Translations under genes and position numbers: made by a program
Shown: piece after piece, positions 41,857 to 59,742 of the stretch
Numbering within the stretch: the first letter of the stretch is position 1
Layout: every line of letters begins with the position of its first letter
IMG/VR virus record: IMGVR_UViG_3300037963_002318
Span: 1-60,369 of that record
Direction: 5' to 3' (one strand)
Length of the DNA stretch: 60,369 nt
From: a virus
Lineage: Duplodnaviria; Caudoviricetes
The notes under the pieces: model-generated
Databases searched by the model: none
Told to the model about the DNA's origin: nothing
The model's input: the letters and a program-made list of their open reading frames with translations, nothing else

Positions 41857-43224
41857 TTATTCCTCATGGACTACTGGTGCGAATAGAGAACCGATGTAGC
41901 CCTCCTTTTCGTCAATTAGATATGCGGCCAAACCTGCGGTGCTAGTAGTGTAACCTGCTCTTGCGTGGTATCTGTCGTGACCTGCAAGGGATGGCATCTG
42001 CACAATTAGGCATCCGTCTTTTTCGGTTAAGCGTTGGTGGTGAAGGTGTCCGTGGAACCATACTCTATGGTCGGTCTGTCCCCACTGCTTCTTTGCTTCG
42101 TTAGCCATTAGACCAGCAAGGCTATTGGTCTTTTTAAGTCCGTCACCGTGGGTGAATCCAAGCAGTGTTGAACCGTACACTAGGTAACGGCGGTTAAAGG
42201 AGGATATGGTAATTGTGACATCATTACAACCTTCGTATGCCGCAGATAGATACATCATCAGTGCGATAGTGGAATGGCGGTCGTGATTGCCAGCCATCAT
42301 TACTACTTCGACAGGTGCGATTTGTCGCATCAAGTCAATGTGTTCTCGGGCCAACTTGCATCCGGTAATAAGGATTTCAGCAGGGGAGCCGCACATATCT
42401 TGCAGGGTTCCCTTAGTAGTAGTACCTTGGTCGTTATCAACATGGAACCAATCGGAGCCAGCACCTACATAGATTTTTTCGGGAGCAGATGGGATTCTGC
42501 TAACAAGGCTTTCGGTCTTTTCCATTAGACGCTTTCGTGCCTCCTCGAAGTTGTATGTTTCACCTACTTCATCCTCCCAGCCGTGTTTTCCCCAGTGGAA
42601 ATCGGTAGGACATACTACTAGGGCGTATGGTGAAGGAGCCACAGGTAATTTTAGTTTCGGCACTTTGGATGCGGCTTTTGGTAGGTCTTTGAGATAGTTT
42701 AGTTTCCACTCAAGGTCACGCCACTTGACCGCATCTTCTTCGAGAGCCTTGCGTTCACGCTTGTATATTTCCTGTGCGGCGTTGTGTTTGCGCTGGGATA
42801 ACAAGTCGTCAATGTGTTGCTCGGGTTCATCCAGCAGTTGTTCGTTAGATAGCGGGACTGTGGAGTGCGTAACCTTGTGCGCTCTTTTCCAAGCCAAGAA
42901 GTGTTCAACTGGCATATCGTATTTGAGTGCCATTTCGGAGGCGGTCAACGGGGTGCCGTCAAAACCGGAGTAGTCACGGAGCATGGCTCGGTGCTTTTCG
43001 CCGGACATGCTGATGTCCCCAAAAGTGAGGGCCGTAATGTATGTGTCGGAGGACTCGTCGTAGGAGTATGAATCGTCTTTTACTTCGCTCTCGTAATTGA
43101 TTAGGCGCATCTCCCACGCCTTCACTGTTGAGTCGGGGTAGTATTGGTTTAGTAGTCGTGCGTAGCCGATTCTGCTACCGGGGTGTTCATCCATGTGCTT
43201 TAGTATCGTGTCTTGATGGGACAT
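41857..43224 (-). CDS. calcineurin-like metallophosphoesterase with N-terminal HTH
   Basis: DFHWG, GSDWFH, GNHD, THGD, GHLHH motifs. Confidence 0.85.
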   Translation of the reverse strand: MSHQDTILKHMDEHPGSRIGYARLLNQYYPDSTVKAWEMRLINYESEVKDDSYSYDESSDTYITALTFGDISMSGEKHRAMLRDYSGFDGTPLTASEMALKYDMPVEHFLAWKRAHKVTHSTVPLSNEQLLDEPEQHIDDLLSQRKHNAAQEIYKRERKALEEDAVKWRDLEWKLNYLKDLPKAASKVPKLKLPVAPSPYALVVCPTDFHWGKHGWEDEVGETYNFEEARKRLMEKTESLVSRIPSAPEKIYVGAGSDWFHVDNDQGTTTKGTLQDMCGSPAEILITGCKLAREHIDLMRQIAPVEVVMMAGNHDRHSTIALMMYLSAAYEGCNDVTITISSFNRRYLVYGSTLLGFTHGDGLKKTNSLAGLMANEAKKQWGQTDHRVWFHGHLHHQRLTEKDGCLIVQMPSLAGHDRYHARAGYTTSTAGLAAYLIDEKEGYIGSLFAPVVHEE

Positions 43225-43394
43225 TAGTTATTGGGTGTGCCCGCCAGTTTATCAATGTTTTCCAAAAAAAAAAATCAAAAAAACGCATGGTGCTTGGCTG
43301 TCCCTATATGTATGATAGATGTGATTTTTGGCGACTCGCCTATTAGTAAAAACAGGGCAGTTTTTTGTGATGCCCAGCACTAGAGATTCTCGAC

Positions 43395-43604
43395 TCAATT
43401 TCTCAAGTCAAGAATCCACTGCGGAGCGTCTGAAGTACCCCAATTGTACGGCAGTACTTCAAACGGTACACAGCACCCAAATCCAAGGTTGGTCTTGGTT
43501 GCTAGTTTTTCTCCTACTATCTTCAGTGTACCACATCTGATACACCTAATCATGTTCGTTTTGTACATCTCTTTCCATTCTTTGTTACTCATCATTTTCA
43601 TCAC
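43395..43604 (-). CDS. small Cys-containing hypothetical protein
   Basis: CIRC motif; coupled to the upstream ORF. Confidence 0.4.
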   Translation of the reverse strand: MMKMMSNKEWKEMYKTNMIRCIRCGTLKIVGEKLATKTNLGFGCCVPFEVLPYNWGTSDAPQWILDLRN

Positions 43605-43741
43605 TCATCTTCTTGGTTATACTCATGCTGTGTGCAATCTAAATCATGACCGTGGTCTAGTTTAGCATTACATTCTTCACATCTATCACAAGTGCATTCA
43701 TCAATTAGTTGGAAGCAATCTTCGCATGATTCCTCAGTCAT
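43601..43741 (-). CDS. small acidic Cys/His-rich protein (46 aa, not in ORF track)
   Basis: MTEESCEDCFQLIDECTCDRCEEC...; GAGG RBS upstream. Confidence 0.45.
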   Translation of the reverse strand: MTEESCEDCFQLIDECTCDRCEECNAKLDHGHDLDCTQHEYNQEDE

Positions 43742-43744
43742 TCT

Positions 43745-44149
43745 TCATGCCTCCTCAAATTGTTGGAATGTGGTGTCTGTGTTATCACACTCAATCTCAT
43801 AGACTAATCGTGGCGGTAGTTTCGCTTTAGGTGCCAAGTCGCTTGGACTGTTCAAGTTGTAGTCAATTGGTGGCAGGTTATCCCACTGAATTGATGTGTC
43901 CTTCTTTGTCTCCCTTGCCTTCTTCAGCATATCATCTAGTGTATGCTCATGCTTGGTAACAATGATGTCAAACCATCCCTCGCCATCATCTTCGATTGTC
44001 CAATCAATAGCGAATGCGTGGCAGTATTCGCACCAGCACTCCTCTCCTGTTCTGTCTGTTATCCAGTGATGTTCACCTTCTCCGCATGTATCGTTATTAT
44101 CTCCGACCATGCACCGACGACCACACCACCCCTTATCAATACTCCTCAC
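43745..44149 (-). CDS. acidic hypothetical protein with Cys/His cluster
   Basis: C..H...CWCEYC; likely start is ATG 44110. Confidence 0.5.
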   Translation of the reverse strand: MRSIDKGWCGRRCMVGDNNDTCGEGEHHWITDRTGEECWCEYCHAFAIDWTIEDDGEGWFDIIVTKHEHTLDDMLKKARETKKDTSIQWDNLPPIDYNLNSPSDLAPKAKLPPRLVYEIECDNTDTTFQQFEEA

Positions 44150-44217
44150 ATATGCACCACATATCCAGCGATTTCAAGACCTAATCCAAATCACCACGAA
44201 ATCATATAATCATCATA

Positions 44218-44278
44218 TATCAGTAAGGTACTGCCCCCGGCTCAGTAAATAGAGAGAGAGAAAGAGAAAAAGAGAGAG
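44218..44278 (+). repeat. cassette-boundary element copy 1
   Basis: TATCAGTAAGGTACTGC...CTCAGTAAAT followed by a purine (GA)n tract. Confidence 0.85.
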
Positions 44279-44309
44279 CCCCCCAGTGGAGCGAACTCCA
44301 CTGAGGGGC
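44278..44309 (-). terminator. GC-rich UUCG hairpin followed by a (UC)n tract on the minus strand
   Basis: Minus strand reads GCCCCTCAGTGGAG-TTCG-CTCCACTGGGGGGC, downstream of ORF 44352..44672. Confidence 0.6.
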
Positions 44310-44351
44310 AGATTACTGAGATTTCAGTTATACAAATCCAGCCCAATTGAT

Positions 44352-44672
44352 TCAATTGTTGTTTATGATTGCATCCAAGGCGTTTCTTGTTCGCTCATGG
44401 TCGATGAGTGTTGCATTCTCATATGCGACCAATACTGCACTAAACTCCTTGCTATGGCTACATAGGTATTGTGCGGTGTTCTTCTGCATCATGCCGTACT
44501 TCTCCTTCACATATCCTACATTGGTATGATTGAACAAGTTTGCATATACAGCATAGAATGTGTGAAAATACACATTGAAAACACACCTACCTATTCTGTC
44601 TATATCTTGTGGTACTATTGTCATAATTATCACCTCCTTGTTTGACGCTTCATTCATCCTAATATCTGCCAT
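44352..44672 (-). CDS. hypothetical cassette protein
   Basis: Main ORF between elements 1 and 2, with its own TATA (TATATATA near 44743-44750). Confidence 0.55.
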   Translation of the reverse strand: MADIRMNEASNKEVIIMTIVPQDIDRIGRCVFNVYFHTFYAVYANLFNHTNVGYVKEKYGMMQKNTAQYLCSHSKEFSAVLVAYENATLIDHERTRNALDAIINNN

Positions 44673-44797
44673 TACGCTTCGCCTCTTGATTCACTTCATC
44701 CTCTATCTGATTTCCGTATTGGTCATACTAACAGGTAGGTTGTATATATACCCTTCTCGAAATCATCATCAAAATGCTCATTCAATATTTCAACAGG

Positions 44798-44858
44798 TAT
44801 TAGTAAGGGTACTGCTCCGACTCATAAATAGAGAGAGAAAGAGAAAGAGAGAGAGAGA
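44798..44858 (+). repeat. cassette-boundary element copy 2
   Basis: TATTAGTAAGGGTACTGCTC...CTCATAAAT followed by (GA)n. Confidence 0.85.
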
Positions 44859-44860
44859 CA

Positions 44861-44876
44861 GGGGGCCGAAGCCCCC
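44861..44876 (-). terminator. UUCG hairpin followed by a (UC)n tract on the minus strand
   Basis: GGGGGC-TTCG-GCCCCC downstream of ORF 44900..45271. Confidence 0.55.
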
Positions 44877-44899
44877 CGCCCCTCGGATTTCTGATTTGC

Positions 44900-45271
44900 T
44901 CAGATGATGTCGCCAAACAGGTCTGCAAGGTAGTACGAGATTGATGCCCTGCCTGCTTCATCTGCTTGGTTGTATTCCTCCAGCATGTTCTTCTGATTTG
45001 CTCGATACTGTGTCAGCCATTCTTCAGCATCTCTCATCAGTGATTCGGGGGATTCTCTCAAAATCCAATCCATATCACAGTCTCTCAGAACCTTCTCCAG
45101 CACATTTACTGCCTCAGTTTTCAGTGGTGTTTCTATGTTATCAGCCTCTCTCAGCACAATTGCATGTGCCTTGGTTGCCTCGTGTATGCTTTCTGCAATT
45201 GCAGTTACCAGCATCATTACCATGATGTTGGTTCTGTCAAACGCTTTTCTGCCTATATTTCCGGTGTCCAT
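44900..45271 (-). CDS. hypothetical helical cassette protein
   Basis: Only sizeable ORF between elements 2 and 3; upstream TTTAATAGGGGG promoter and GAGG RBS. Confidence 0.6.
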   Translation of the reverse strand: MDTGNIGRKAFDRTNIMVMMLVTAIAESIHEATKAHAIVLREADNIETPLKTEAVNVLEKVLRDCDMDWILRESPESLMRDAEEWLTQYRANQKNMLEEYNQADEAGRASISYYLADLFGDII

Positions 45272-45345
45272 TTTGGTCGCCTCATGTTACCCGACATGGT
45301 TCCCCCTATTAAACCCAGCGATTCAGACAATCAATAGTTATTGTA

Positions 45346-45399
45346 TGTTAGTAATACTTCCCCTTCGTCTCAGTAAGAAAAAGAGAGAGAGAGAGAGAG
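45346..45399 (+). repeat. cassette-boundary element copy 3
   Basis: TGTTAGTAATACT...CTCAGTAAG followed by (GA)n. Confidence 0.8.
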
Positions 45400-45615
45400 T
45401 TAATCGTGGTACTGCGTGGCATTTTTGATTTTCCACGGCTGGCCGTGAAATCCAACCGTGACTTGATATACTACCACCTGCTCGTCGGTGTATATCCGGG
45501 CAACGATAACCGACAATCAGCAATTACACGAAAATTGGTTTGACAGGTGGTCTGGAACGAAACTGGTAACAGAACGGGGAGCAACCCCGATGTCAAAAGC
45601 AGGAGATGTTTGTCC

Positions 45616-46326
45616 ATGAGCCCAGCGTGGTATGTCATGCAGACAAACATGATTAACGGAAAGGAGGAAACAGTTGGACTGTTGCGTCGAACCATCAACA
45701 ATTTGTTGATGCTAGTTGCAACTATGTTGGGTTACCAACAACCAACTGCGACCTTAGTGAGCAAGATGAAGGAACTAGACCACCTGTACACTGAGTACTT
45801 GGGTCACTGTGCAACCGACTGGATTGGATTCAATCCACCCAGCAAGCGAACACAAACCCTGCTACGAAACAAGTGGATGAAAACCATGAACCAACTAGCC
45901 AAGCAAATAATGAAGGAACTTGTCAAAATCGACTGTTCCTACTGTGGACTTGGTAATGTGTCCGAGAGTGACAAATGCTCCGGCCGAAAGGTCGGTAGTG
46001 GATTTGAAGTCCACGAATGGCAGAAGTCACCAAAGGCACCGAGAGTCTGGGTTGTTGACCAAGAAGCACACTACAATAGTGAGTGGATATGGGTTGACGA
46101 AACCGGACACTATGAGTGGGGCCAACTATACCTACCTGCACAGGGCAACTGTGCAATAGGTCACGGGCCCTACGAAGGTTCAGATAGACCAATGCACAAC
46201 GCACTGGCACATCTTGACAGCGAAGCAGCACAACTGGTGCTAAAGCACTTGGAATACGGCGAAGTACCTCGCCGAGTCCGAGTGGCACTAAACGAACTGG
46301 CCGAGTACGAAACTCGAACAGTTTGA
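45616..46326 (+). CDS. hypothetical cassette protein with CxxC...C motif
   Basis: In-frame ATG 45616 after an AGGAG RBS (track start 45547); CSYC...KC. Confidence 0.6.
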   Translation: MSPAWYVMQTNMINGKEETVGLLRRTINNLLMLVATMLGYQQPTATLVSKMKELDHLYTEYLGHCATDWIGFNPPSKRTQTLLRNKWMKTMNQLAKQIMKELVKIDCSYCGLGNVSESDKCSGRKVGSGFEVHEWQKSPKAPRVWVVDQEAHYNSEWIWVDETGHYEWGQLYLPAQGNCAIGHGPYEGSDRPMHNALAHLDSEAAQLVLKHLEYGEVPRRVRVALNELAEYETRTV

Positions 46327-46370
46327 TACTGAAACAGGCAACAAGTTTGCACCGATTTCGGTTATTTGCC

Positions 46371-46463
46371 CTCCCCAGCACTTCGGTGCTGGGGAGTGGC
46401 TCCTTTTCGGGGTGTCCGAGACGAAGAAGTCCGGGCACCCCACCTTTTTTCATTATTTTTTTA
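46371..46463 (+). terminator. double hairpin plus T tract
   Basis: CTCCCCAGCAC-TTCG-GTGCTGGGGAG (46371-46396), GGGGTGTCCG/CGGGCACCCC (46409-46441), then T runs. Confidence 0.65.
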
Positions 46464-46473
46464 TTTGAACATA

Positions 46474-46535
46474 TATTAGTAAGGGTACTGCTCGCATTCA
46501 GTAAAAAAGAGAGAGAGAGAGAGAGAAGAGAGAGA
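46474..46535 (+). repeat. cassette-boundary element copy 4
   Basis: TATTAGTAAGGGTACTGCTC (20 nt identical to copy 2)...TTCAGTAAA followed by (GA)n. Confidence 0.85.
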
Positions 46536-46551
46536 TGCGGCTTTCATTTTT

Positions 46552-46992
46552 TCAATTTACTCCCTCCAAGAACATATCATAGGTGAAAGTCTGAGGAGGG
46601 AATACTCCATGTTTCTCTAAGTATAGGGCCTGCTCGGCCGTTTCAATGTGTAGTATTTGCTTCAATGTATCAAGGCCGAGTATATCGCATATTTCGCCTT
46701 GAATCCTTGAGGCTTTCAATTCACCCTCTAAAGTGAAAGGGCAATCGTATTTTAGGTGTATAGTGTCATGTAATGCCCTAAATAGGATATTGAAGGGCGC
46801 ACTTCCCCATATGGTTGAATGACTCTCCCCTCCCCAAATCGGCATAGGTAACATTTTGTTATATGCCTCGATGACGGGCTCAAATCCCATATCCTCAATT
46901 GTGACATAGAAGGGATAGACCCCGACATAATCACAGACCTTGAGAAGTCCGTTTTGTATTGCTTGCTTTAATTCGGTAGGTATTGCGACCAT
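46552..46992 (-). CDS. putative metal-binding protein with N..FRAxHDxxH motif
   Basis: FNILFRALHDTIHL...FTLEGE; own TATA and GGAGG RBS. Confidence 0.6.
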   Translation of the reverse strand: MVAIPTELKQAIQNGLLKVCDYVGVYPFYVTIEDMGFEPVIEAYNKMLPMPIWGGESHSTIWGSAPFNILFRALHDTIHLKYDCPFTLEGELKASRIQGEICDILGLDTLKQILHIETAEQALYLEKHGVFPPQTFTYDMFLEGVN

Positions 46993-47058
46993 GTACCTCC
47001 CACGCTACCCCACTATATGAACCCAGCGTTTCAACAAATAGCCAATGAATCAAGTATA

Positions 47059-47124
<66 letters not shown>

Positions 47125-47125
47125 C

Positions 47126-47158
47126 CCTATCATGAACGGTTTTACCTATCATGAACGG
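47126..47158 (+). repeat. tandem 14-bp direct repeat CCTATCATGAACGG
   Basis: Exact copies at 47126 and 47145. Confidence 0.85.
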
Positions 47159-47251
47159 GCCGCCGACCCCCTCTCGGCGGGTGTTTTTTGACCCCCTTGA
47201 GTATTTAAGCAACCGAACATGTTCGTTAATTCTTTAAGGCAAACGGGGTTA

Positions 47252-47770
47252 TTCGGAAATTGCCCGCAAGGGCCGAAGCAATCGGAAACGAATCGGGGGG
47301 GGCGACCTCTCCAAGTCGGCACTCACAAGACTTGGAGACACTAACCCACGGCTCCCGACAAATCTAGCAAGTGATTTCCAAGAGGGTCGCACTCAATCAG
47401 AACACCAAACACAGTGGGATTGAGTCGCCTCAAGGATTCATGGCCTCAACTCCATAGGAGAGGGTCAATCAGAATCAGATGACGGGCTTGCAGGGCGGTC
47501 GAGAGGCCGACAAATGTGCTGGTTTGGCATTACCTTCGGGTGAAAGTGTTCCATGATGCCAAAACACCAGCATAAAGCCACGATGAGGGGGCGTTCTGCC
47601 TATCCGAATCGAGAGCGATTCATTCACTAGGATGGACTCAAAATCGTTTGAGCCCTAGTGACTTTGAGATAAACTAAATCGTGGCCGTTCGTTTTACACA
47701 ATCCTATTCACACTAGATTGAGGAGATGCAATTCGATGATTCAATCAATCCAACTCCCTTGCCCCTACTG
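47252..47770 (+). ncRNA. candidate large structured RNA (unknown family)
   Basis: No ORF in the track; many long stems and GNRA/UUCG tetraloops on the + strand; TATA-like TTTAAG at ~47195 and ~47233. Confidence 0.55.
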
Positions 47771-47804
47771 ATACGGGGAAACACAAGGCGAGGAGCGTGA
47801 AACA

Positions 47805-50327
47805 ATGCAAACAACAACAACAACAGGAAACATGCTACTAGACCTGTTAGTGTGCATCTTGGCACTACTGCCAATTATGATGCCACTACTAGCGGTTCTA
47901 GCGGTACGACGAAACGAACGAATGAACATGCGAATAGGTCTTGAGATTGAAGCAATCAAGAAGGCCCACATTCGTGAGTCACCACATGAGAAGATGGCAC
48001 ACTGGATAATGAAGTGTGACGAGAAGATGTTGAAACTAATGTCTCCCCGTACACGGAAAACCATCCGTGCCCTCAAAGTCTCATTCCGTGGTTACACTCA
48101 CGAAGTCATGGATGAAACCAAGATTGTCACAGACTCATCATTGAGTCGTGGCGGCTTTGAGATTGTGTCACCCCCACTCATGGGGCGTGGTGTAATCATG
48201 TCGTGGATTAGTCGAATGATGTCACATCTTCGTGGTGTGGCTGAAGTCGATAGGTCATGCGGCCTTCATGTCCATGTGGGTCTGAAGGACTACGGAGCAA
48301 GGGCAAATAGAATCGAATTAGGCTTTACCGAGCCTACCGAGGGACTTGGCCCCGAAGACTACGCCAAGGCCATTACTGGTCGAGTTGCGTGGGCCTACGG
48401 GTATTTCCAATATGCAATCAATCTGATTGTCAGCCCAAGCCGCCGAAACGGCGAATGGAGCCGTGATGTGTCCTACATCAGCCGCCAATATAGCAACCCG
48501 AGTGAAGTCCGCTTCCCTCAGCGAAAATGGGATGATGAACACGGAATGTATATCCGTGAATGGCACACTGAAACCGACCCTGCAAAGGTCGGCATGGTGT
48601 TCTATGACCGACTGTACGAAGGTAACCCCGACTACGGTGACTCCCGCTATCAGTGCGTAAATCCTCAATCACTGCCGAAGTACGGTACGATTGAGTTTAG
48701 AGCGCACCAAGGCACTACGAACGCAACCAAGATTCAGAATTGGGTGCAATTCTTGCACCTACTGGTCAGCCGTTGTGCTAGTAACTATTGGACAGACATC
48801 ACCAACTTCCGTGGTGACTCAATTCATGACCTATTCACTTGGCTTGGTTTGGCAGACGATGACCCACTCTATGTGGCTATGGTTCGCCGTATCAAGGCAC
48901 TGAATGGTAACAACCCTAGCGTATTCCGCAACGACCCAATCTTGGCACACAACGCACTCTTCAAGGAGAGCGTAACATGCTCCCGATGTGGTTCGGCTTC
49001 TTGTGACTCAGACGAAGTGTGTGGCACTAATTACACACAGGATTTGATGGAGGAAACCGAGGCTCACTTCTTGGACTTGGATAGGTCATGCGACACATGT
49101 GGCACATCACTTCGGGAAACCGAAGCACACATGCGCTACAACTACGGTGACTACCACGAAGCACACTGCCCCGAGTGTCGTGACATGAGGGTGTTCAACG
49201 CTATGGGAGGAGTCATCCTCTCAGTCATGCTTGGCACCCTACCACTGGCACTAGTTATCGTAGGGTGTGGAATTGGTGCCATACATGCGGCGGCTAAGAC
49301 CTTCAAGTCCAAGCGATTGTCAACTAGACTGTTCAAGGCATTATCAGCCCGAGGCAAGCAAGCATCGGGCTTCGCCTTTGAGAACGGGAAGGGAGTGTAT
49401 TTTGTGAAAGCACCACACTCCTCAATCGCTATGGCTCACCATGTACCGAAGCAACTACGGAAACAAACCCAATGGTCAATGTTTCACACCCGCTTCGCCA
49501 CTCATGGTGCCAACAACAAAGCAAATGCTCACCCTCACTTTGGTCGCAAGGCTAAGGTGACGCTGGTTCACAACGGCGTGGTTCACAACCACGACGATGT
49601 ATGGATGGCGTTAGGCGAGAAGCCTACGGGCCCTGTGGACTCACAGGCCGTGGCACAGTGCTTAGAAGTTGGTGGAATTGAGAAGGTAGTCGAGTTATGC
49701 AAGGGCTCAATGTCCTTGATTTGGTCAGACAGTCGTGACCCGCAAGGTACTCTCAAGTGCTGGACTAATGGAGGCAATCCACTAGTCATGGGTCGCATAG
49801 ACGACAAGGCAACCGGCCCCGTAGTAATTGCTTCAACTGAGGCACTTCTCAAGGAGGGTTGCGGCAAGCGTCTCAAGACACATTGGGATGCAACCATCGG
49901 GCGTGAGTACACAATCTCGCCTACCGGTAGCATCAGCCGCCGTGACATCGAAGGCAGTGAAGCCACTGCCGGAGTTGTCTATGACTGGCGTACCTACAAA
50001 GTCGATGACTTTTACTACACCTACGGTAGCAACTACTCGACTACCAAGACCAAGAAGCGACACCTACCTTATCGCATCAAACAGATGGCGAAGAAGGAGT
50101 TGGAGCGACTTGGTAGTTGGGAGCCAATCGAAGGCAAATGGGATGGCTTCGACCTGCACACTTTCAGTGGCATTCATGCCGCTAAGTGGGATGAGTCGGG
50201 CAAGCCCTTGACCTACGCACTGCCGCAATACATCAACCCGATGCACTACGACAGTGACCTTGAGGAAATACTCATGGGGTCGCACAGACCCGATGAGTTG
50301 GACTCATGCACCTATGAGGCCCCTTGA
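47805..50327 (+). CDS. amidoligase (COOH-NH2 ligase, Amidoligase_2-like) fused to class II glutamine amidotransferase
   Basis: IGLEIE, DSSL..FEIVSPPL, SCGLHVHVG, RY..VN, GTIEFR; then CGIG, RG..ASG, HTRFATHG, AHPH, HNGVV, VDS. Confidence 0.85.
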   Translation: MQTTTTTGNMLLDLLVCILALLPIMMPLLAVLAVRRNERMNMRIGLEIEAIKKAHIRESPHEKMAHWIMKCDEKMLKLMSPRTRKTIRALKVSFRGYTHEVMDETKIVTDSSLSRGGFEIVSPPLMGRGVIMSWISRMMSHLRGVAEVDRSCGLHVHVGLKDYGARANRIELGFTEPTEGLGPEDYAKAITGRVAWAYGYFQYAINLIVSPSRRNGEWSRDVSYISRQYSNPSEVRFPQRKWDDEHGMYIREWHTETDPAKVGMVFYDRLYEGNPDYGDSRYQCVNPQSLPKYGTIEFRAHQGTTNATKIQNWVQFLHLLVSRCASNYWTDITNFRGDSIHDLFTWLGLADDDPLYVAMVRRIKALNGNNPSVFRNDPILAHNALFKESVTCSRCGSASCDSDEVCGTNYTQDLMEETEAHFLDLDRSCDTCGTSLRETEAHMRYNYGDYHEAHCPECRDMRVFNAMGGVILSVMLGTLPLALVIVGCGIGAIHAAAKTFKSKRLSTRLFKALSARGKQASGFAFENGKGVYFVKAPHSSIAMAHHVPKQLRKQTQWSMFHTRFATHGANNKANAHPHFGRKAKVTLVHNGVVHNHDDVWMALGEKPTGPVDSQAVAQCLEVGGIEKVVELCKGSMSLIWSDSRDPQGTLKCWTNGGNPLVMGRIDDKATGPVVIASTEALLKEGCGKRLKTHWDATIGREYTISPTGSISRRDIEGSEATAGVVYDWRTYKVDDFYYTYGSNYSTTKTKKRHLPYRIKQMAKKELERLGSWEPIEGKWDGFDLHTFSGIHAAKWDESGKPLTYALPQYINPMHYDSDLEEILMGSHRPDELDSCTYEAP

Positions 50328-50624
50328 GCCAAGTGTTCATTCGTGACAACACAACATACGATTTTGTTTGAAACAACAATATCGAAGCCGAATGGCGGGG
50401 GTGTTCGCACCCCCGTCATTCTCCCCCTGTTAGCATACACACTCCTCTCCTATCACAATCACATTTACCACGCTCCTCAATCGAGGGCGAGCCGCCTAGA
50501 CAAGTGCGGGGTACCAAGTCGGTCTTCACTGGAGTTTTCTTCTCACTCCTTCTCCAGTGATTTTGGGGTGTCGAGGCCCGTTCATAGCCTCGGCATCCCT
50601 CCCACTCCCTTGGAGGCATACACC

Positions 50625-50867
50625 ATGAGCGACAAACCGACCATGAAGAAGTGCAACCACATCGAGTGCGGCGGCAAATTGCAACCGCATTCAATCGACT
50701 CGGCAACGGGTACGCTGGACTGTGATGGCCCATGCTCCCCCCGCCGTGTCCAAATGTGGCGTGATGCACTGAGCAAGCAACCAACCGAGCAACCCAAACC
50801 TAAACCGGTCTATCAAGGGCCGGTTACAAAGGAGGTTTGGGAGGACTTGTGTTACTGGAAACAGTGA
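50625..50867 (+). CDS. small Cys-containing protein
   Basis: ATG 50625 after GGAGG; C..IEC...CDGPC. Confidence 0.5.
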   Translation: MSDKPTMKKCNHIECGGKLQPHSIDSATGTLDCDGPCSPRRVQMWRDALSKQPTEQPKPKPVYQGPVTKEVWEDLCYWKQ

Positions 50868-50973
50868 ATGCACAGTCCACTCGACTAGAGGGTGGCGGTG
50901 GCCTACAACCCACCCCCTCAGATGGCATGAGGTAGCCAAACCGGACTGAGTGACAACCGGCAAACACACAAAT

Positions 50974-51042
50974 GGGGCCGGCCTTCGGGCCGGCTCCAAA
51001 TATGTGTTATTTTTTTTATTTTTTTATTTTTTTTATTTTTTT
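50974..51042 (+). terminator. UUCG hairpin plus long T-rich tract
   Basis: GGGGCCGGCC-TTCG-GGCCGGCTCC, then repeated T7-8A units. Confidence 0.7.
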
Positions 51043-51048
51043 AGTTTA

Positions 51049-51282
51049 TATTAGTAAGACGATAGTCTTATTGAATAAAAGAGAGAGAGAGAAAGTTGAG
51101 AGAGAAAGAGAGAGAGAAGTAAAGAGAGAAAGGGGGAGAGAGAGCATTAGTAAGACGAGAGAGAGAGGTGCGTGTGAGAGAGAGAAGAGTTATATAGTGG
51201 AGAGAGAGAAGTCTTAGTAAGACGAATGAGTGGGCGAGAGAGTGCCTATGAAAAAGCCTTAGTAAGACGAAAAGAAGGAAAA
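51049..51282 (+). repeat. boundary element copy 6 expanded into four TTAGTAAGACG iterons in purine-rich DNA
   Basis: Exact TTAGTAAGACG at 51051, 51147, 51214 and 51259, separated by GA-rich tracts. Confidence 0.85.
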
Positions 51283-51580
51283 GGTTATAACGAAAGAGAG
51301 GCTAAACGGTGTACTGAGAGCCTGTCGAGAGAATAGAGAGCCAAAAAAACTGTCAATGCGTATGGAATGGAGTAGGTAAATCAGGTGTTTCCAGCAACAC
51401 CTACTGTTGTCTGCTACCCTCGATATTCAAGTAACAACTCCGGCAAAAATCAGACTATCCGGCAGTGCCAGCCGACACACCCACAACGCCAGCCGAAACC
51501 TGCACCGCTAAATGCACCCCTGCTCGGCCATTCACCTATCAACATTCATATACTCACCACCGATTCTTGCCACCACCAAC

Positions 51581-51604
51581 TTGATATACCGGCGGCCCCA
51601 TATA
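51581..51604 (+). promoter_or_regulatory. early-type promoter motif copy
   Basis: TTGATATACCGGCGGCCCCATATA upstream of 51627. Confidence 0.55.
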
Positions 51605-51626
51605 CTAACCAACGGAGGCAACCAAC

Positions 51627-51866
51627 ATGGTAACGAAACAACAACTACAAAACATGCTTGACGAAACGATTGAAGAATTACAGAAGCCCACATCTGAAGG
51701 CGGCCCTATGGGCCAGCGATTTAGGCAACTGCTATTTCACAGGGCCAACTTGGAAATGAAACTGAGGGACTTGGAAAAACCCGAGCCGGAGGAAAACCCA
51801 TACCAAAAATACTACGACCACGCAAGGGAGTATTACTCAGAAGAATCAGAGGAGTTGTTCTCATGA
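51627..51866 (+). CDS. hypothetical protein
   Basis: GGAGG RBS and promoter upstream. Confidence 0.6.
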   Translation: MVTKQQLQNMLDETIEELQKPTSEGGPMGQRFRQLLFHRANLEMKLRDLEKPEPEENPYQKYYDHAREYYSEESEELFS

Positions 51867-52009
51867 AGTGGCTAACATGCCCCGATTGCAGTTGGAAAGT
51901 GTGTGTCGCTGATACGACTACGACCATAGACCCATGCGATTGTGCGTGTGGTGCTGAAAGCATAAACCCATACAACGGAACCAAGCAATACAAGGAGGAT
52001 TCAGCATGA
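51863..52009 (+). CDS. small zinc-ribbon protein (48 aa, not in ORF track)
   Basis: MKWLTCPDC...CDCACG; ATGA coupling. Confidence 0.5.
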   Translation: MKWLTCPDCSWKVCVADTTTTIDPCDCACGAESINPYNGTKQYKEDSA

Positions 52010-52116
52010 AGATTAGAGTGCCTACGCCGATTTGGTGCGCTTGGCTGGTCTTGACCCTGCCAATCGCCGTAATCAACCTACTGCTCTATATCACAGGTGT
52101 CGTTGAGGTCGGCAAC

Positions 52117-52140
52117 TATAAATAGGGGCGGCCCCATTAA
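52117..52140 (+). promoter_or_regulatory. early-type promoter motif copy
   Basis: TATAAATAGGGGCGGCCCCATTAA. Confidence 0.65.
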
Positions 52141-52168
52141 CAGACTGAAGCAACCGGAGAGGAGCAAC

Positions 52169-52330
52169 ATGGAATACAACAGAAAAAACAACGGACAATT
52201 CGACACCCCACAAAAGGTGTCATACCAATGCGAAGAATGCAATCACCAGCATATCGGATTTGAGATACACGGAATGAGAATAACCTGCCCCGAATGCGGA
52301 TTCTCATTCGTCATAGGACAGGAGGAATAA
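52169..52330 (+). CDS. small zinc-ribbon protein
   Basis: CEEC...CPEC; AGGAG RBS before ATG 52169. Confidence 0.6.
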   Translation: MEYNRKNNGQFDTPQKVSYQCEECNHQHIGFEIHGMRITCPECGFSFVIGQEE

Positions 52331-52332
52331 AA

Positions 52333-52515
52333 ATGGTAAAAACATACACAATAAACATAACATACGAAGCAACACTGACGACCGAAGAAAACTACACCGA
52401 GGAGGACATCGAGAATGGCCTTTGGTTAGGCGACCTTGAGATAGGAACGCTTGGCTACAACCGTGTAATCAGCATCCGTGGAGATGCGGTGGACTACGAG
52501 ATACAGGAGGAATGA
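52333..52515 (+). CDS. small acidic hypothetical protein
   Basis: GGAGG RBS before ATG 52333. Confidence 0.55.
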   Translation: MVKTYTINITYEATLTTEENYTEEDIENGLWLGDLEIGTLGYNRVISIRGDAVDYEIQEE

Positions 52516-52518
52516 AGA

Positions 52519-53013
52519 ATGAGAACGACAAGGGAATACGGAATTGAAGCAAGAATAATACTGAAAAAATTAGAAGATGCGGGGTGCAAGTTAGTAAAGA
52601 CTGGTTGCTCATATACGAGCGACGGCTACTACGACATCTCATGCGAGGGTCTGACTCTCGGTGAAATCGCATACAACCTATGGAATCTTGAGGACTCACT
52701 GCTACATATCATCAACCCCGATGGCAAAAAAGCATGGGCAAGATTCATCTTCGGCAACGGCTGGGGCGAATTGGTGGCTGACTACTCAGTGAACCTACTC
52801 GGCACAGGTTTGCCATACGAAGAGGCACGAAAGCGTGAGCGAGAAGTAGGAATATGGGACTACTACGACTGGAGCATCAATGATGTGCTGAAGTTTTTCG
52901 GAACATCAGTTTCATTCACCAGCATCATCGACGAAGCGATGAATATAAATAGGGGGAGCCCCCTTATAGAAAATGAGGCCGACTCAGAAACCGGACACAC
53001 ACAGGAGGAATAA
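52519..53013 (+). CDS. hypothetical protein
   Basis: GGAGG RBS; FIFGNGWGELVADYS motif. Confidence 0.6.
   Translation: MRTTREYGIEARIILKKLEDAGCKLVKTGCSYTSDGYYDISCEGLTLGEIAYNLWNLEDSLLHIINPDGKKAWARFIFGNGWGELVADYSVNLLGTGLPYEEARKREREVGIWDYYDWSINDVLKFFGTSVSFTSIIDEAMNINRGSPLIENEADSETGHTQEE
52944..52968 (+). promoter_or_regulatory. early-type promoter motif copy
   Basis: TATAAATAGGGGGAGCCCCCTTATA inside the 3' end of the 52519 ORF, upstream of 53016. Confidence 0.6.
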
Positions 53014-53015
53014 GA

Positions 53016-54269
53016 ATGCCAAAAGCAACAACAATAAGAATGACGAAGAACGAAAAAGACCTTATGCAACTGCACACGGCGGCCCGAGGGCTACAAGAAG
53101 TGCAACTAGCAATCACCGCCGAGTTTGGCAGACAACATGCCGACTTCGATGGCAACGCTGAGTTTAGTGGTAACTGGCCTAACAAGACGCTGAAAAAGGG
53201 TCTGAAGATGTCAAGATATAGTGTCAGAAGAGGCACCTTGCCACAGGTCGAAGCACACTTCGATTGGACACCGGAGTATGTCAAGAAGCAGACTGAGACC
53301 GCTAAGAAGCAGGGTCGCAGACCGTATCTATACGGTGCTGGAACATACCGACCAGTCAACCCGCAGATTACTGACGAAGATGGCAAGCCAGTCAAGCATG
53401 ATGACGGCTCATACAAGTATCGCTGGGAGTGGACACCGCACATCGTAGCAGGTATCGAAACCTACATGGAAAACTGCTTGAAGGCGGCGTTAGCGGCCGC
53501 AAAGCGTGAGTTGACCGAGAGCGAAGTAAAATACAGTCGTGACGGGAGAGCGCAAGAAGTATGGAATGTCGTGCAAAGACTACAACAATTCCAAGCATAC
53601 ATCACATTGGATAAGACCTACTACGAGAACGGCGGCAGAACCCTTGTATCGAAGCGAGCAAACCCATACGAGCATCAACACTATGTTTTGCGTGGTGACG
53701 GCTTTAACTCAAGCGATAGCGACTACTACACACACCCGCTACTCGGGCTTGGTCTGAAGTGGTCACTCATCAACAAGGGCAAAAATATTCTGAAAGCATT
53801 ACAGGATATGCACCTTGCCTACAACACATACAACAACAAGATGAGGAACCAAAAATACACGGCGGCCAATGTGGATAACTATGTGAAGAATGTGGAAATC
53901 AACGAGCAAGCCTATGAGGACTTAATCAAGAAGGTCACTAACGATGGTGAAATCACAGTGGATGATGCAATCAAGGCAGACAACGATAAGAGGGCTGAAG
54001 TTGAAGAATACTTCAAGAACATGCCACACGCTGACATGCTTTCGACATCAACACGAACACCTACATTCCGCAAGATTACGATTAGCGAGCAAGTCAAGCA
54101 AGCCGAGAATCGCATCGTGCAAAGCAAGGCAAGGCTGGCCCGTGAGCAAACTCGCTTGGCTGAGGAGACATCTGACCTACCTAAGTTGGAGTGGCAAATC
54201 ACAATGATGAAGGCCGAAAAAGTAGCCGCACAATACGGACTACTCAATGACGGAGGTGAAGAGGAATGA
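53016..54269 (+). CDS. hypothetical protein with C-terminal coiled coil
   Basis: 417-aa ORF, GGAGG RBS, no motif recognised. Confidence 0.7.
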   Translation: MPKATTIRMTKNEKDLMQLHTAARGLQEVQLAITAEFGRQHADFDGNAEFSGNWPNKTLKKGLKMSRYSVRRGTLPQVEAHFDWTPEYVKKQTETAKKQGRRPYLYGAGTYRPVNPQITDEDGKPVKHDDGSYKYRWEWTPHIVAGIETYMENCLKAALAAAKRELTESEVKYSRDGRAQEVWNVVQRLQQFQAYITLDKTYYENGGRTLVSKRANPYEHQHYVLRGDGFNSSDSDYYTHPLLGLGLKWSLINKGKNILKALQDMHLAYNTYNNKMRNQKYTAANVDNYVKNVEINEQAYEDLIKKVTNDGEITVDDAIKADNDKRAEVEEYFKNMPHADMLSTSTRTPTFRKITISEQVKQAENRIVQSKARLAREQTRLAEETSDLPKLEWQITMMKAEKVAAQYGLLNDGGEEE

Positions 54270-54472
54270 TGACCGACATGAGAGGAATTGCTGGCGTGTG
54301 GATTGACCTACATGGCCGCAAGGTATTCAAGCACAAGATTGACAACACTCAGTATATGCCATGCGAACACCCAGCCGTTGAGGCTGGTGTCACAGAAGAG
54401 TCGCATTGGTATCTGATGATTGAAACTGATGGCCGGACTTGGCTTTGGGATGGATGGATTACGGAGGGCTGA
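54266..54472 (+). CDS. hypothetical protein
   Basis: ATGA coupling. Confidence 0.5.
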   Translation: MMTDMRGIAGVWIDLHGRKVFKHKIDNTQYMPCEHPAVEAGVTEESHWYLMIETDGRTWLWDGWITEG

Positions 54473-54578
54473 AGATGTATTGGGGAACCGCATACTCGCA
54501 GGTCAAGCAAGCATTCAAGTGCCGCAGGTGCGGCGAGATTGGATTGCGATACGCACATGAAAAATGCGATTGCCAAAG

Positions 54579-54602
54579 TATAAATAGGGGCAACCCCTAT
54601 AT
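54579..54602 (+). promoter_or_regulatory. early-type promoter motif copy
   Basis: TATAAATAGGGGCAACCCCTATAT (palindrome ATAGGGG-CAA-CCCCTAT). Confidence 0.65.
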
Positions 54603-54622
54603 CAAATCGGAGCAGTGATACA

Positions 54623-54871
54623 ATGGATAAACTGAAGAACGCAAAACTAATACTAGAAGAATACAAGCGAGCGATTAACCCGATACTCGACCACTTTGAA
54701 GCGGCGAGTATCAAGTCGCTACGCTTGAAGCAAGGCAACATGCTGACATCTGAAGAGTACCATTACTTAGACCAACGCATAGCGGAGGCCGAGTCGGTAC
54801 TTAGAGGCGTGTTGAGTGACTACGAAGATTTGATGTATGAAGCATTAGATGAGAAGGAGGACTTGGAATGA
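54623..54871 (+). CDS. hypothetical helical protein
   Basis: Follows the promoter motif. Confidence 0.55.
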   Translation: MDKLKNAKLILEEYKRAINPILDHFEAASIKSLRLKQGNMLTSEEYHYLDQRIAEAESVLRGVLSDYEDLMYEALDEKEDLE

Positions 54872-55194
54872 GGACACTATACGGAACCGATAGCAAGCAC
54901 AGACTGTGGACTAAAACTGAATATGCCGATGGCAGAATCGAGATTCAGATGCAGAAAAGGTTTGGCGACAGGCCAGTGAAAGTTACACCACACTCATACA
55001 AAAAGGGTGTCGTGTGCTTTGAATCGGGCAACAGTTTTTACCACGAACCATTAGAGTATATCAATTGGACTACGGAAAAACACAACGAGCCGGTTACGAC
55101 AGGTTATATCGAACCGCCGATGTCTGCCCCTGCGTTAGAGTGGCTCATCCGTGAAATAGAAACTTGGAGGGGTGACAGTGGTTCAACTGAGTAG
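54868..55194 (+). CDS. hypothetical protein
   Basis: GGAGG RBS, ATGA coupling. Confidence 0.55.
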   Translation: MRTLYGTDSKHRLWTKTEYADGRIEIQMQKRFGDRPVKVTPHSYKKGVVCFESGNSFYHEPLEYINWTTEKHNEPVTTGYIEPPMSAPALEWLIREIETWRGDSGSTE

Positions 55195-55465
55195 GTCTAA
55201 GATGTGGTGGAGCAAGGAGGACAAGGAGTGGTATGTGCAGGTAGCATCAGACCATGAGCGAGCCATGCTTCGCCCCGATTGGTGGGAGGGAACGGAAAAG
55301 GTTCTGAGCAAAGGCTATGATTACAGTAACAAGTACGGCTGGTTCATCATTGTCGGTGTGCCGGTCAAGCAATACTTGAAGCACCATCCCGAAGATGTGT
55401 ACTTGGTACAGGCCGTGTTAGATGAAATCAAAAAGCGTGATGACAGGAGGCGAAAAAAATGCTGA
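55172..55465 (+). CDS. hypothetical protein
   Basis: Operon-filling ORF. Confidence 0.5.
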   Translation: MTVVQLSRSKMWWSKEDKEWYVQVASDHERAMLRPDWWEGTEKVLSKGYDYSNKYGWFIIVGVPVKQYLKHHPEDVYLVQAVLDEIKKRDDRRRKKC

Positions 55466-55695
55466 GTGACCACCAAGATTCAGAACACTTCATAGGAGTG
55501 CGTAGCGAGAGCGAGTTGCTTGACATGCTTGACAAAGCCGAGCGCAAAAAGAATAAACACTATACTATGGCGCAGACTGAATTGAAAAGGCCATTGATAA
55601 TGTATCACATGAGGAATTACAAAGCACTTGAGGGCGTGGTGAAGACCCTCCGATGGGCTCTTGGGGACATGAATGTGGAACACCCACTGGAGTGA
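55459..55695 (+). CDS. hypothetical protein
   Basis: GGAGG RBS; RSE.EL...TLRWALG motif echoes the N-terminus of 1744. Confidence 0.55.
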   Translation: MLSDHQDSEHFIGVRSESELLDMLDKAERKKNKHYTMAQTELKRPLIMYHMRNYKALEGVVKTLRWALGDMNVEHPLE

Positions 55696-55705
55696 ACCGG
55701 CATCG

Positions 55706-55728
55706 TTAAATACCGGCAACCCCTATAA
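55706..55728 (+). promoter_or_regulatory. early-type promoter motif copy
   Basis: TTAAATACCGGCAACCCCTATAA. Confidence 0.6.
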
Positions 55729-55745
55729 CAAAATGAGGATTTGAT

Positions 55746-55994
55746 ATGAGTAATACATACGAAACAGATTATGGAGAAGCGAAGGCCGAATGGCTGGATG
55801 AACCGCAGAAGTGGCGAATCAAACTATACCCTAACAGTATAGCAGATAGACGACCACTTTACAAAGCGGTAACAAAAAGACTACACGAAGATGGATATAC
55901 TACATCTATTCTTCAACAACGCAACAACAAGTTGCGATTCACATGCTGGAAATCAGAAGCAGTGAAGGCACAACCTTTGGAGGCGATTGAATGA
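55746..55994 (+). CDS. hypothetical protein
   Basis: Follows the promoter motif and GAGG. Confidence 0.55.
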   Translation: MSNTYETDYGEAKAEWLDEPQKWRIKLYPNSIADRRPLYKAVTKRLHEDGYTTSILQQRNNKLRFTCWKSEAVKAQPLEAIE

Positions 55995-56299
55995 ATGACA
56001 CAGACAAATATGAAGAATACATGGGGCTCGGTGAAGGGAGAATTGTGCGAACCGCTATGGTATGGGATAAGATGGCAGATGAGTGGTTCACAGACCGAGG
56101 TTGGACTAAACCGCACATGGCCTACGATACCGACCGACCCACGAAAACGCTATGGGTAATGACCCAATGGGAGCCTGAATTATGGCAAGATACGGGAATA
56201 TCAGCGAGGGAGGCTGACTCCTTATTATGTGAAGGATGGGATGAGGCCGAATATGTTGGCTACCAAGAATGGCTGAAAGAACAAGGTGATGAAGAGTGA
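55991..56299 (+). CDS. acidic Trp-rich hypothetical protein
   Basis: GGAGG RBS, ATGA coupling. Confidence 0.55.
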   Translation: MNDTDKYEEYMGLGEGRIVRTAMVWDKMADEWFTDRGWTKPHMAYDTDRPTKTLWVMTQWEPELWQDTGISAREADSLLCEGWDEAEYVGYQEWLKEQGDEE

Positions 56300-56426
56300 C
56301 TAAGCGTATAGTCACCTGCTCATACTGTTGTGAACCAATCACCTTAGAGGAGATTGGTGAAGGCATGTTGAGAGTTTTCAAGACCTGCGGTTGTGACCGT
56401 GGGCCAATGACACAGGAGATGATGAA

Positions 56427-56693
56427 TTGAAAAAATATACAGAATATCTAGCAGAAAAATACGAGCCGATGACGGCTGAAGATTGGAAAGTTTGGTCTGA
56501 GGCCAATGGGACAGGTATGGGAACAGACCACATAGGTCTTGACAAACTTGTTGATGAGATTGCATACCTACGAAGCGTGTTAGCCGAGTGCTATATGTGG
56601 ATGGGGCGCAAGGTTCACAGTGGTTCGATTACCAAGAAGTATCAGTGGGCTATGGCCGAGTGCTACCGCATCAGACAGGAGGATAAAGAATGA
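56427..56693 (+). CDS. hypothetical protein
   Basis: AGGAG upstream; operon context. Confidence 0.45.
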   Translation: MKKYTEYLAEKYEPMTAEDWKVWSEANGTGMGTDHIGLDKLVDEIAYLRSVLAECYMWMGRKVHSGSITKKYQWAMAECYRIRQEDKE

Positions 56694-56842
56694 TTATTTG
56701 GTTATTGAAATGCAGGGGGGTTTGGATTGAAAATTGATACATGCGACATAGCAAGAATGACTATCGTCTATGGTGACGGTAGCATGGTGATTATGGTTCG
56801 CCAGCCTAACGGCACGATGAAAGTTGAAAGGAGGCAACGCTG

Positions 56843-57142: not shown

Positions 57143-57154
57143 GACCCCTATATC
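57131..57154 (+). promoter_or_regulatory. early-type promoter motif copy
   Basis: TTAAGTAGGTGAGACCCCTATATC. Confidence 0.5.
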
Positions 57155-57172
57155 AGTTTGGAGAGGAACAAG

Positions 57173-58223: not shown

Positions 58224-58241
58224 TATAGTGGCGGGCATAAA

Positions 58242-58349: not shown

Positions 58350-58381
58350 AACAAGCAACCAATTAGCGTAGGTGATATACT

Positions 58382-59453: not shown

Positions 59454-59460
59454 CTTTGAC

Positions 59461-59705: not shown

Positions 59706-59742
59706 ACAACAGTTAAATACTGACGACGGATTAGTGATTATT

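Follow-up and report, generated by a model that had tools for sequence, protein, structure and literature searches.

The leader of the lambda N gene, about 220 nucleotides (nt) long, carries nutL and an RNase III-sensitive hairpin which occludes the N ribosome-binding site. The put RNAs of HK022, with two stems in about 65–70 nt, are cis-acting RNAs of processive antitermination, as are the EAR RNAs, and ColE1 RNA II is a structured origin primer. RNAs of conserved structure longer than 400 nt are, to our knowledge, rare in prokaryotes and their viruses, and the earlier large classes (RNase P, OLE, GOLLD, ROOL, and the HEARO/omega RNAs) each opened new biochemistry. The subject of this work is a large structured RNA element which precedes an amidoligase gene in the IMG/VR virus record IMGVR_UViG_3300037963_002318. 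This record, that is, the whole stretch of 60,369 nt that was analyzed (hereafter the window), is a complete ~60-kb tailed-phage genome. Comparisons with related loci show that the element represents a previously uncatalogued family of structured plus strand RNA, shared by a group of ~60-kb tailed marine phages in which an amidoligase fusion comes first in the rightward gene block, and the substitution patterns among its members show a secondary structure under selection on the plus strand with a modular build. There is about an even chance that the element is a cis-acting, structured 5′ leader (~540 nt) of the rightward operon.

The element stands in an intergenic gap of 812 nt (46993–47804), in which the largest open reading frame (ORF) has 57 amino acids; the second-largest gap in a greedy ORF map of the genome has 249 nt. 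An earlier note, made from the letters alone, had described 47252–47770 as part of the largest ORF-free stretch of the genome and as a candidate for a new large structured RNA or leader. Both claims stand, the latter because pairs are kept by compensatory changes and no Rfam family matches. The boundaries proposed there were too short and cut off the 3′ part with the ribosome-binding site, and the element starts at ~47262 (or at 47233, with a promoter-like box counted in) and reaches the start codon at 47805. The gap is flanked on the left by a minus strand gene (46552–46992). On its right, the plus strand gene 47805–50327 encodes an 840-amino-acid fusion of an amidoligase and a class-II glutamine amidotransferase (GATase) and is the first of the plus strand block. 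This rightward block of replication and early genes is co-oriented over ~28 kb, with the structured RNA element at its head.

Sixty-eight relatives of the amidoligase were found among 5.8 billion proteins searched, many of them on ~60-kb contigs, and an alignment of amidoligase relatives used as the query retrieved 80 viral loci and two genome loci. A homologous element is located at the same position in eight distinct sequences, that is, the window and the loci L007, L008, L009, L010, L011, L020, and L089. Locus L006, from metagenome contigs, is a 99.9% identical copy of the window and was not counted as distinct; the other two metagenome-contig matches (L004 and L005) are due to chance, without similarity to the element. 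The covariance model R2 found the 5′ core in 8 of the 45 searched sources (E ≤ 0.012) at a constant position.

The closest relative is a single IMG/VR contig (loci L001, L003, and L007), whose amidoligase is 95% identical to that of the window. Its flanks are near-identical, but 244 unrelated nt stand in place of 399 nt of the window (47287–47685). In the case of L008, the amidoligase protein is only 55% identical and the nucleotides align to 47059–47722 with 74.5% identity over 718 nt. This conservation equals that of the best-kept coding part (49242–50019), and the N-terminal half of the amidoligase gives short nucleotide matches only. The distant loci L015 and L021, whose amidoligase is 35% identical, also have a leader of similar length in which a CCGAAG motif stands at the equivalent place; the models R1 and R2 miss L021, and L015 is reached only at E 0.7.

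Parts of the window stretch are present in the sequencing runs of 12 studies; none of the 21 runs listed is recorded as RNA. Contigs from four public runs carry variants which are 90–95% alike, with single hairpins replaced; the differences of these Logan contig variants are known from 40 of the 168 differing positions. A blastn comparison of the gap with 50,697 phage records gave no match. Searches of viral contigs with two flank patterns and a core pattern returned only the already-known relative or nothing, and a 5′-core pattern returned two already-known contigs only.

The structure was predicted from one sequence alone and the substitutions of another sequence were scored on it, which avoids circularity, and the permutations retained the substitution spectrum of each nucleotide. 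Between the window core and L008 (plus strand, 133 pairs), 11 pairs are changed on both sides yet remain paired, against 2.6 ± 1.5 in the permutations (0/2000 as high), and 15 pairs are broken against 34.4 ± 3.5 (0/2000 as low). An independent pair of the other structural type, L010 and L089, showed nine double changes against 1.7 ± 1.3 (0/1000) and, in the reciprocal direction, eight against 2.0 (1/1000). In ten coding control segments, double changes were not in excess, and the lowest segment reached 50/1000.

The RNAalifold consensus of the window and L008, derived from the same alignment on which it was scored, comprises 131 pairs with 262/262 cells in standard pairing. Fifteen pairs are changed on both sides, against 7.4 ± 1.9 in shuffles and 0–2 in slid controls. 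Covariation between L015 and L021, at 56% identity, gave 9 double changes against 9.6 in one direction and 17 against 10.7 (23/1000) in the other.

With respect to the strand, 12 of 24 one-sided changes between the window and L008 preserve pairing as G.U when read on the plus strand, against 5 of 27 on the minus. Hairpin tips which were gained or swapped are capped by UUCG or GNRA as read on the plus strand, for instance CUC-UUCG-GAG and CCGU-UUCG-ACGG in L008 and the UUCG that closes helix P3 directly in L020. These caps, the tolerance of G.U, and an invariant G.U in P3 agree with the plus strand RNA that the earlier note had read from the tetraloops, and point to an RNA rather than to DNA cruciforms.

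Folding energy against dinucleotide shuffles had been named in the earlier note as a refuting test. The plus strand of 47252–47770 has −173.4 against −151.45 ± 6.18 in the shuffles (z −3.55, 0/100 shuffles as good), the minus strand of the same stretch has z −3.64 against dinucleotide shuffles, and the core 47287–47685 has z −4.38. The element thus beats its shuffles, but coding controls score as low (16 segments of 450 nt from eight loci, 25 shuffles each; z −1.32 to −5.62), and the upstream regions of the same eight loci range from −0.95 to −4.72. The z-score was therefore dropped as a discriminator, and it is covariation, not energy, which lifts the element above chance. As a separate observation, coding segments of the amidoligase (48100–49500 and the same gene in seven relatives) fold far better than shuffles (z down to −5.6), and an excess of folding energy seems to be general in these genomes.

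The 4227 models of Rfam 15 include RNase P, the signal recognition particle (SRP) RNA, transfer-messenger RNA (tmRNA), group I and II introns, GOLLD, ROOL, HEARO, OLE, raiA, and the glutamine riboswitches. They gave no match to the whole window at gathering scores and none to 46900–47900 at E ≤ 10. In eight relatives (62351 bases, E ≤ 1), only tmRNA was returned, at E 0.82 and with 12.3 bits, where the gathering score is 47; this match falls within the beginning of the amidoligase gene of L007 and was rejected as due to chance. ARAGORN found no tRNA or tmRNA gene in the window. The earlier note, which saw no RNase P, SRP, or tRNA consensus, is upheld by models and program alike. Its suggestion of an intron-like element is not supported, since the element interrupts no gene and lies after a promoter-like box, ahead of the first start codon. 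Nor is a self-splicing group I or II intron indicated, as the amidoligase ORF is complete downstream and no intron model matched.

A coding gene or leader peptide was rejected on the small size of the largest gap ORF and on the lengths of the indels between the window and L008 (4, 5, 10, 11, and 14 nt). The ATG at 47219 opens a frame of 41 amino acids in the window and meets a stop after seven codons in L008. A mobile insertion similar to a miniature inverted-repeat transposable element or an insertion sequence was also rejected: the replacement is of 399 by 244 nt, P3 is common to both versions, and no terminal repeats are reported at 47287 or 47685. A scan for bacterial intrinsic terminators in 46800–47950 listed only a hairpin upstream of the RNA (47160–47180) and none at 47686–47700. 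In full-text literature searches, the element was not found described. The intergenic regions of IMG/VR were surveyed in 2023 (PMC10690425), with 8495 motifs of 29–151 nt (mean 67) reported; the main text of that survey, which the comparison covers, has no occurrence of amidoligase or amidotransferase, and single hairpins of the element may already be among its motifs.

The comparison of the members shows a build of three modules. The first is a conserved 5′ core (P1, CCGAAGCAA, P2, and P3), the second a central domain that is exchanged among members, and the third a 3′ part that is again conserved. All helix coordinates refer to the window (plus strand), and the comparisons were made partly by reading the sequences of the eight members. 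The promoter-like box, TTTAAG in the window (47233–47238) and TTTATA, TTATAC, or TATATA in relatives, stands 23–24 nt before P1 in all eight. P1 (47262–47273), the first structure of the RNA, is the hairpin GCCC-GCAA-GGGC with a GNRA loop. A hairpin directly before CCGAAG is found in 8/8 members, with the stems GCCC/GGGC, GUCGAG/CUUGAC, GUC/GAC, GUCGGGG/CCCCGAC, and GCUC/GAGC. MAFFT does not align these hairpins, and their stems were compared by reading. The joining motif CCGAAGCAA (47273–47281) follows, of which CCGAAG.AA is invariant in the seven-sequence alignment and present also in L089.

P2 (47282–47291) is the hairpin UCG-GAAA-CGA, or UCGGA-N5/6-UCCGA in L007 and L008; it is 94.7% paired in seven sequences, and one pair is double-changed. 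As an alternative to P2, RNAalifold predicted the pairing CCGA/UCGG (47273–76/47282–85). P3 (47293–47358) consists of the helix 47293–47299/47352–47358 and a variable tip, located in the window at 47310–47337. Its seven pairs are 100% paired in 7/7 sequences, with three compensatory pairs and one invariant G.U. P2 and P3 were recovered by a covariance-model alignment of seven sequences, which leans toward the model. In place of the P3 tip, L007 and L011 have other hairpins and L010, L020, and L089 a bare tetraloop, and in run X7 a mini-hairpin of 15 nt substitutes for 47302–47350. Elsewhere in the genome, 52110–52172 appears as a miniature 5′ core, with TATAAATA, a hairpin GGGGC-G-GCCCC, CTGAAGCAACCGG, a ribosome-binding site, and the ATG at 52170; weak matches to the core model (E 0.1–0.2) came from the corresponding places of L011 and L020.

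Downstream of P3, two types are distinguished. Type A (window, L006, and L008) extends over helices 5–18 (47363–47685). It begins with a multi-helix central domain found in this type only (47363–47509, helices 5–10, six double-changed pairs). A long hairpin capped by ACC-UUCG-GGU comes next (47515–47574, helices 11–13); none of its 20 pairs is broken and three are changed on one side through G.U, and in L008 its internal loop holds an extra 10-nt mini-hairpin, CUC-UUCG-GAG. A branched domain closed by GCCACGAU/AUCGUGGC (47577–47685, helices 14–18) has five double-changed pairs; in runs X7 and X14, 70 other letters stand in place of 47623–47699. Type B (L007, L009, L010, L011, L020, and L089) has CACAAGUCC, the helices P5 and P6, in which 6 of 16 pairs are compensatory, and variable distal hairpins. 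Mosaic combinations also exist, for instance L009 with a type-A P3 tip on a type-B body.

The 3′ part starts with an A/U-rich linker (47686–47709) which includes a U-run (47692–47695) and then the box UCCUAUUC (47702–47709), with TC.TATTC invariant in the seven-sequence alignment. A run of 4–6 T is found in six of the eight members and is missing in L011 and L020. In the window, it begins 6 nt past the closing stem and thus forms no canonical intrinsic terminator. The next hairpin, GAUUGAG...UUCAAUC (47716–47746, helix 19), keeps its stem with a CCGU-UUYG-ACGG tip in L008, L009, and L089. Its counterparts are GACUGAG/CUCAGUC in L011 and GAUUGAGGA/UCCUCAAUC in L020, and it is absent in L010. 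Finally, a predicted helix (47757–47807) pairs the ribosome-binding site GAGGAG (47790–47795) ahead of the amidoligase start at 47805. The site has a predicted probability of being unpaired of 0.10–0.37 in 8/8 close members, through three sequence versions, and the median for control genes of the window (n = 22) is 0.53.

The stems listed in the earlier note were all found at their places by sequence reading and as inverted repeats. They are GCCC-GCAA-GGGC (47262–47273), TCG-GAAA-CGA (47282–47291), TCTCCAAGTC/GACTTGGAGA (47308–47338), and ACTCAATC/GATTGAGT (47391–98/47418–25). Further on are TGCTGG../..CCAGCA with TTGGCAT/ATGCCAA and ACC-TTCG-GGT (47515–47574), and GCCACGAT/ATCGTGGC (47577–84/47678–85), which encloses GAATCG/CGATTC and TCACTAG..GGACTCAA/TTGAGCC..CTAGTGA. 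All belong to the consensus structure of the window and L008, several with compensatory changes, except GCGACC/GGTCGC (47302–07/47385–90). The latter is present in the window, but the comparative fold puts 47385–90 in another helix and L008 has a mismatch.

The DNA upstream of the RNA carries a (GA)n tract (47092–47124), which belongs, as (TC)n on the opposite strand, to a leftward promoter cassette and lies outside the RNA. Two exact 14-nt repeats, CCTATCATGAACGG (47126–39 and 47145–58), are conserved in six of the eight members and occur nowhere else in the genome. They are followed by a hairpin with T6 (47160–47190), also part of the flanking control DNA outside the RNA, and by a perfect 12-nt palindrome, CGAACATGTTCG (47214–47225), which is replaced by other modules in L009, L011, L020, and L089. 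Three different operator-like modules stand before the promoter-like box, independently of type A or B. The 14-nt repeats and the palindrome are probably regulator binding sites of a divergent control region.

A minus strand cassette of (TC)n, TTACTGAG, a short spacer, and CTTACTAATATAT was observed ahead of four minus strand genes. Its copies are located at 47053–47130, 46460–46545, 45280–45330, and 44160–44310, for gene starts at 46992, 46453, 45271, and 44149, respectively. Two of them are preceded by 14-bp GC-rich hairpins with a TTCG loop (44884–44853 and 44309–44278). The cassettes have the appearance of terminator-promoter units in an array of early genes.

In the case of the rightward promoter-like box, no sigma-70 −35 partner was seen at 47233. 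A sigma-70 promoter was rejected on this ground and because such sites are not enriched in the genome (25 against 25.9; 27 against 27.3). Either an archaeal-type TATA box or a bacterial −10 would fit it. TATA-like boxes were also observed 17–24 nt before several start codons (4640–4682, 11600–11640, 14375–14414, and others). They would mean leaderless messages or messages with very short leaders, and fit an archaeal promoter and a bacterial −10 equally. An archaeal host is possible in view of the sparse sigma-70 signals, these boxes, the ERCC4-HhH nuclease, and a clamp loader whose lid is RFC-like; set beside this, ribosome-binding sites are common in the genome. The tblastn matches of the large terminase are all below 26% identity and mixed (cyanophage, Arthrobacter, and haloarchaeal viruses). 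Two metagenome-assembled genome records are labeled Parvibaculum and Opitutales, labels which are those of bins. No host came from the cluster names or the protein atlas.

If the element is a leader, transcription would start at or just before P1 from the box 47233–47238, and the RNA would run on into the amidoligase message. The 5′-terminal core would form once the polymerase leaves the promoter. The lambda N leader and the put RNAs suggest, by analogy, that this core may bind a protein or influence the polymerase during transcription. The long hairpins might stabilize the message or serve as processing sites. The last helix would hide the ribosome-binding site, and translation of the amidoligase would await its opening by processing, a protein, or a ligand. 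The leader is preferred because the RNA starts at a fixed distance from the promoter-like box, because no stem-plus-U terminator stands between the RNA and the gene (with the U-run missing in two of the eight members), and because the final helix is predicted to cover the ribosome-binding site.

Several points weigh against the leader or against the evidence for its structure. The start, the end, and even the expression of the transcript are inferred. The U-rich tract at 47692–95 and the invariant TATA-like box at 47702–09 could be a terminator and a second promoter, and the RNA would then be a separate gene. Five of the 22 control genes have a ribosome-binding site as occluded (≤ 0.25), and that of the distant L021 is 0.90 unpaired. 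The signals are compatible with either promoter type and with a bacterial or an archaeal host. The distinct sequences are only eight and the strongest tests rest on two sequence pairs. The permutation null is imperfect, as two of the ten coding controls reach ≤ 7/1000 on the broken-pair measure, which makes this measure less trustworthy. MAFFT with RNAalifold on the eight sequences returned three pairs in the 5′ core and none in the 3′ part; these consensus folds failed because MAFFT misaligned the helices. P1, the hairpin at 47716, and the helix of the ribosome-binding site rest on reading and on single-sequence folds. Energy cannot tell the element from coding sequence, and the minus strand folds as well as the plus. 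Double changes are also high on the minus strand (12 between the window and L008; seven in one direction of L010/L089), since they necessarily occur at the same frequency on either strand, and the strand call therefore rests on the G.U behavior and the loop identities.

A free-standing non-coding RNA gene of ~435 nt, transcribed from the box 47233–38 and reaching from P1 (~47262) to the U-rich tract at 47692–95, is the main alternative, which we hold only tentatively. The box at 47702–09 would in that case be the amidoligase promoter, and the product would be a trans-acting scaffold, decoy, guide, or ribozyme, with its specificity set by the exchangeable central domain. The stretch 47262–47685 is made wholly of closed domains under structural selection. 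At its end, six of the eight members conserve a GUUC-N-UUUU(U)ACA tract; the U-run, however, has just four T in the window, is absent in L011 and L020, and has no abutting stem, so that it makes no bacterial intrinsic terminator and none was listed there by the scan. In archaeal transcription, an oligo-T run alone can terminate. The gene is attractive if the host is archaeal, since a TATA box ~23 nt upstream would set the start exactly at P1. The TATA-like boxes 17–24 nt before several starts and the invariance of TC.TATTC are further points in its favor. Near-identical phages (the window and L007) differ in the central domain, in the manner of specificity-determinant alleles, but no partner protein covaries with the domain type, as no flanking ORF follows the split between types A and B in the flanks examined. 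The members may also form a new RNA class, large, modular, and free-standing, in marine viruses that possibly infect archaea, though this is rather doubtful. In such a class, the invariant 5′ core (P1, CCGAAGCAA, P2, and P3) would be the handle for a protein or the catalytic center, and the central domains and tips would set the specificity of a ribozyme, ribonucleoprotein scaffold, decoy, or guide at the start of infection.

It is unlikely that the hairpins and repeats work as a replication origin, either as DNA or through an origin-priming transcript similar to ColE1 RNA II or the T4 origin R-loops. The element does occupy the genome's only large divergent intergenic region, adjoins the two direct repeats, a purine/pyrimidine tract, and the palindrome, and contains a run of eight G (47295–47302). 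The phage has its own family-B DNA polymerase and clamp loader, and both strands fold well. However, G.U-tolerant substitutions with UUCG and GNRA caps point to an RNA of one strand, the (GA)n tract belongs to a cassette repeated four times, the structured part is downstream of the promoter-like box and runs into the ribosome-binding site, and no turn of GC skew stands out here (profile 44000–50899). Least probable is a functionless scar of mosaic recombination, or an inserted mobile or selfish element, in which the hairpins are incidental. The 244 unrelated nt which L001, L003, and L007 carry between near-identical flanks, the swapping of sub-hairpins among Logan contigs, and coding sequences that equal the energy z-scores would fit it. 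The exchange is, however, a replacement and not an insertion; both versions keep P3 within the conserved 5′ and 3′ frame, and the inverted-repeat scan reported no terminal repeats or target duplications at the junctions. Moreover, compensatory changes far above the permutation nulls occur in two independent pairs, which neutral sequence would not produce.

Among the other genes, those of the minus strand encode the tape-measure protein, tail tube, portal, and large terminase, and those of the plus strand the family-B DNA polymerase, the clamp loader, a PD-(D/E)XK nuclease, the ERCC4-HhH nuclease, and a gamma-glutamyl cyclotransferase. Past the end of the tape-measure gene, a minus strand ORF of 2408 amino acids (15131–22357) matches nothing in Pfam or PHROG. 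A plus strand ORF of 259 amino acids (45547–46326) is kept as a protein in L007 (74%), L009 (33%), and L010 (22%). An overlapping minus strand ORF of 176 amino acids (45923–46453) matches only the near-identical L007. The plus strand ORF is probably the real gene because, unlike the other, its protein is conserved beyond L007. The amidoligase-GATase fusion (47805–50327) is accompanied in this genome by the gamma-glutamyl cyclotransferase (3678–4034) and a metallophosphoesterase/exonuclease (41857–43224). According to published descriptions, amidoligase, GATase, and metallophosphoesterase are auxiliary genes in OM43 phages and a Poseidoniales virus. The Poseidoniales virus with amidoligase/GATase is there described as lacking a DNA polymerase, unlike the phage of the window.

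The element heads the replication and early block of a widespread family of ~60-kb marine phages. Because near-identical phages differ by natural exchanges of domains, they give genetics a way to ask which parts are important. As a leader, it would be unusually large and modular, in control of a set of amidoligase, GATase, and gamma-glutamyl cyclotransferase genes; as a separate RNA, it would be a new class of phage non-coding RNA.

Compared with known systems, the element resembles ColE1 RNA II as a structured RNA of ~500 nt with a G-run and adjoining repeats in a control region. Unlike RNA II, it leads into a translated gene with a ribosome-binding site, and no antisense partner similar to RNA I was identified. 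With the Rfam families GOLLD and ROOL, it shares a length above 400 nt, a multidomain build, a phage-borne location, many helices capped by tetraloops, and an unknown function. It differs from them in its smaller size and in giving no covariance-model match (E ≤ 10 in the window; E ≤ 1 in the relatives), and it does not stand beside tRNAs but abuts a start codon. The motifs reported in the survey PMC10690425 are similar in coming from intergenic regions of IMG/VR phage contigs with covariation evidence, whereas the element is far longer than the range given there.

Closer in position are the put and EAR RNAs, as the 5′ core places three hairpins in ~100 nt right after the promoter-like box at the head of the ~28-kb block. 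The likeness to antitermination is one of position only; terminator-like sites in 43000–60369 (both strands) number 23 against 14.2 ± 3.9. Unlike put, the element has no Rfam match and has a further ~350 nt under structural selection. The lambda N leader differs in that the element has ~540 nt, shares no sequence or Rfam similarity with it, and has no identified boxA or boxB, and an N-like protein is not known here. The resemblances to the lambda N leader, if the element is indeed a leader, are its great length and structure directly behind an early promoter, a functional RNA element near the 5′ end, long hairpins, and a helix which is predicted to lie over the ribosome-binding site of the first gene.

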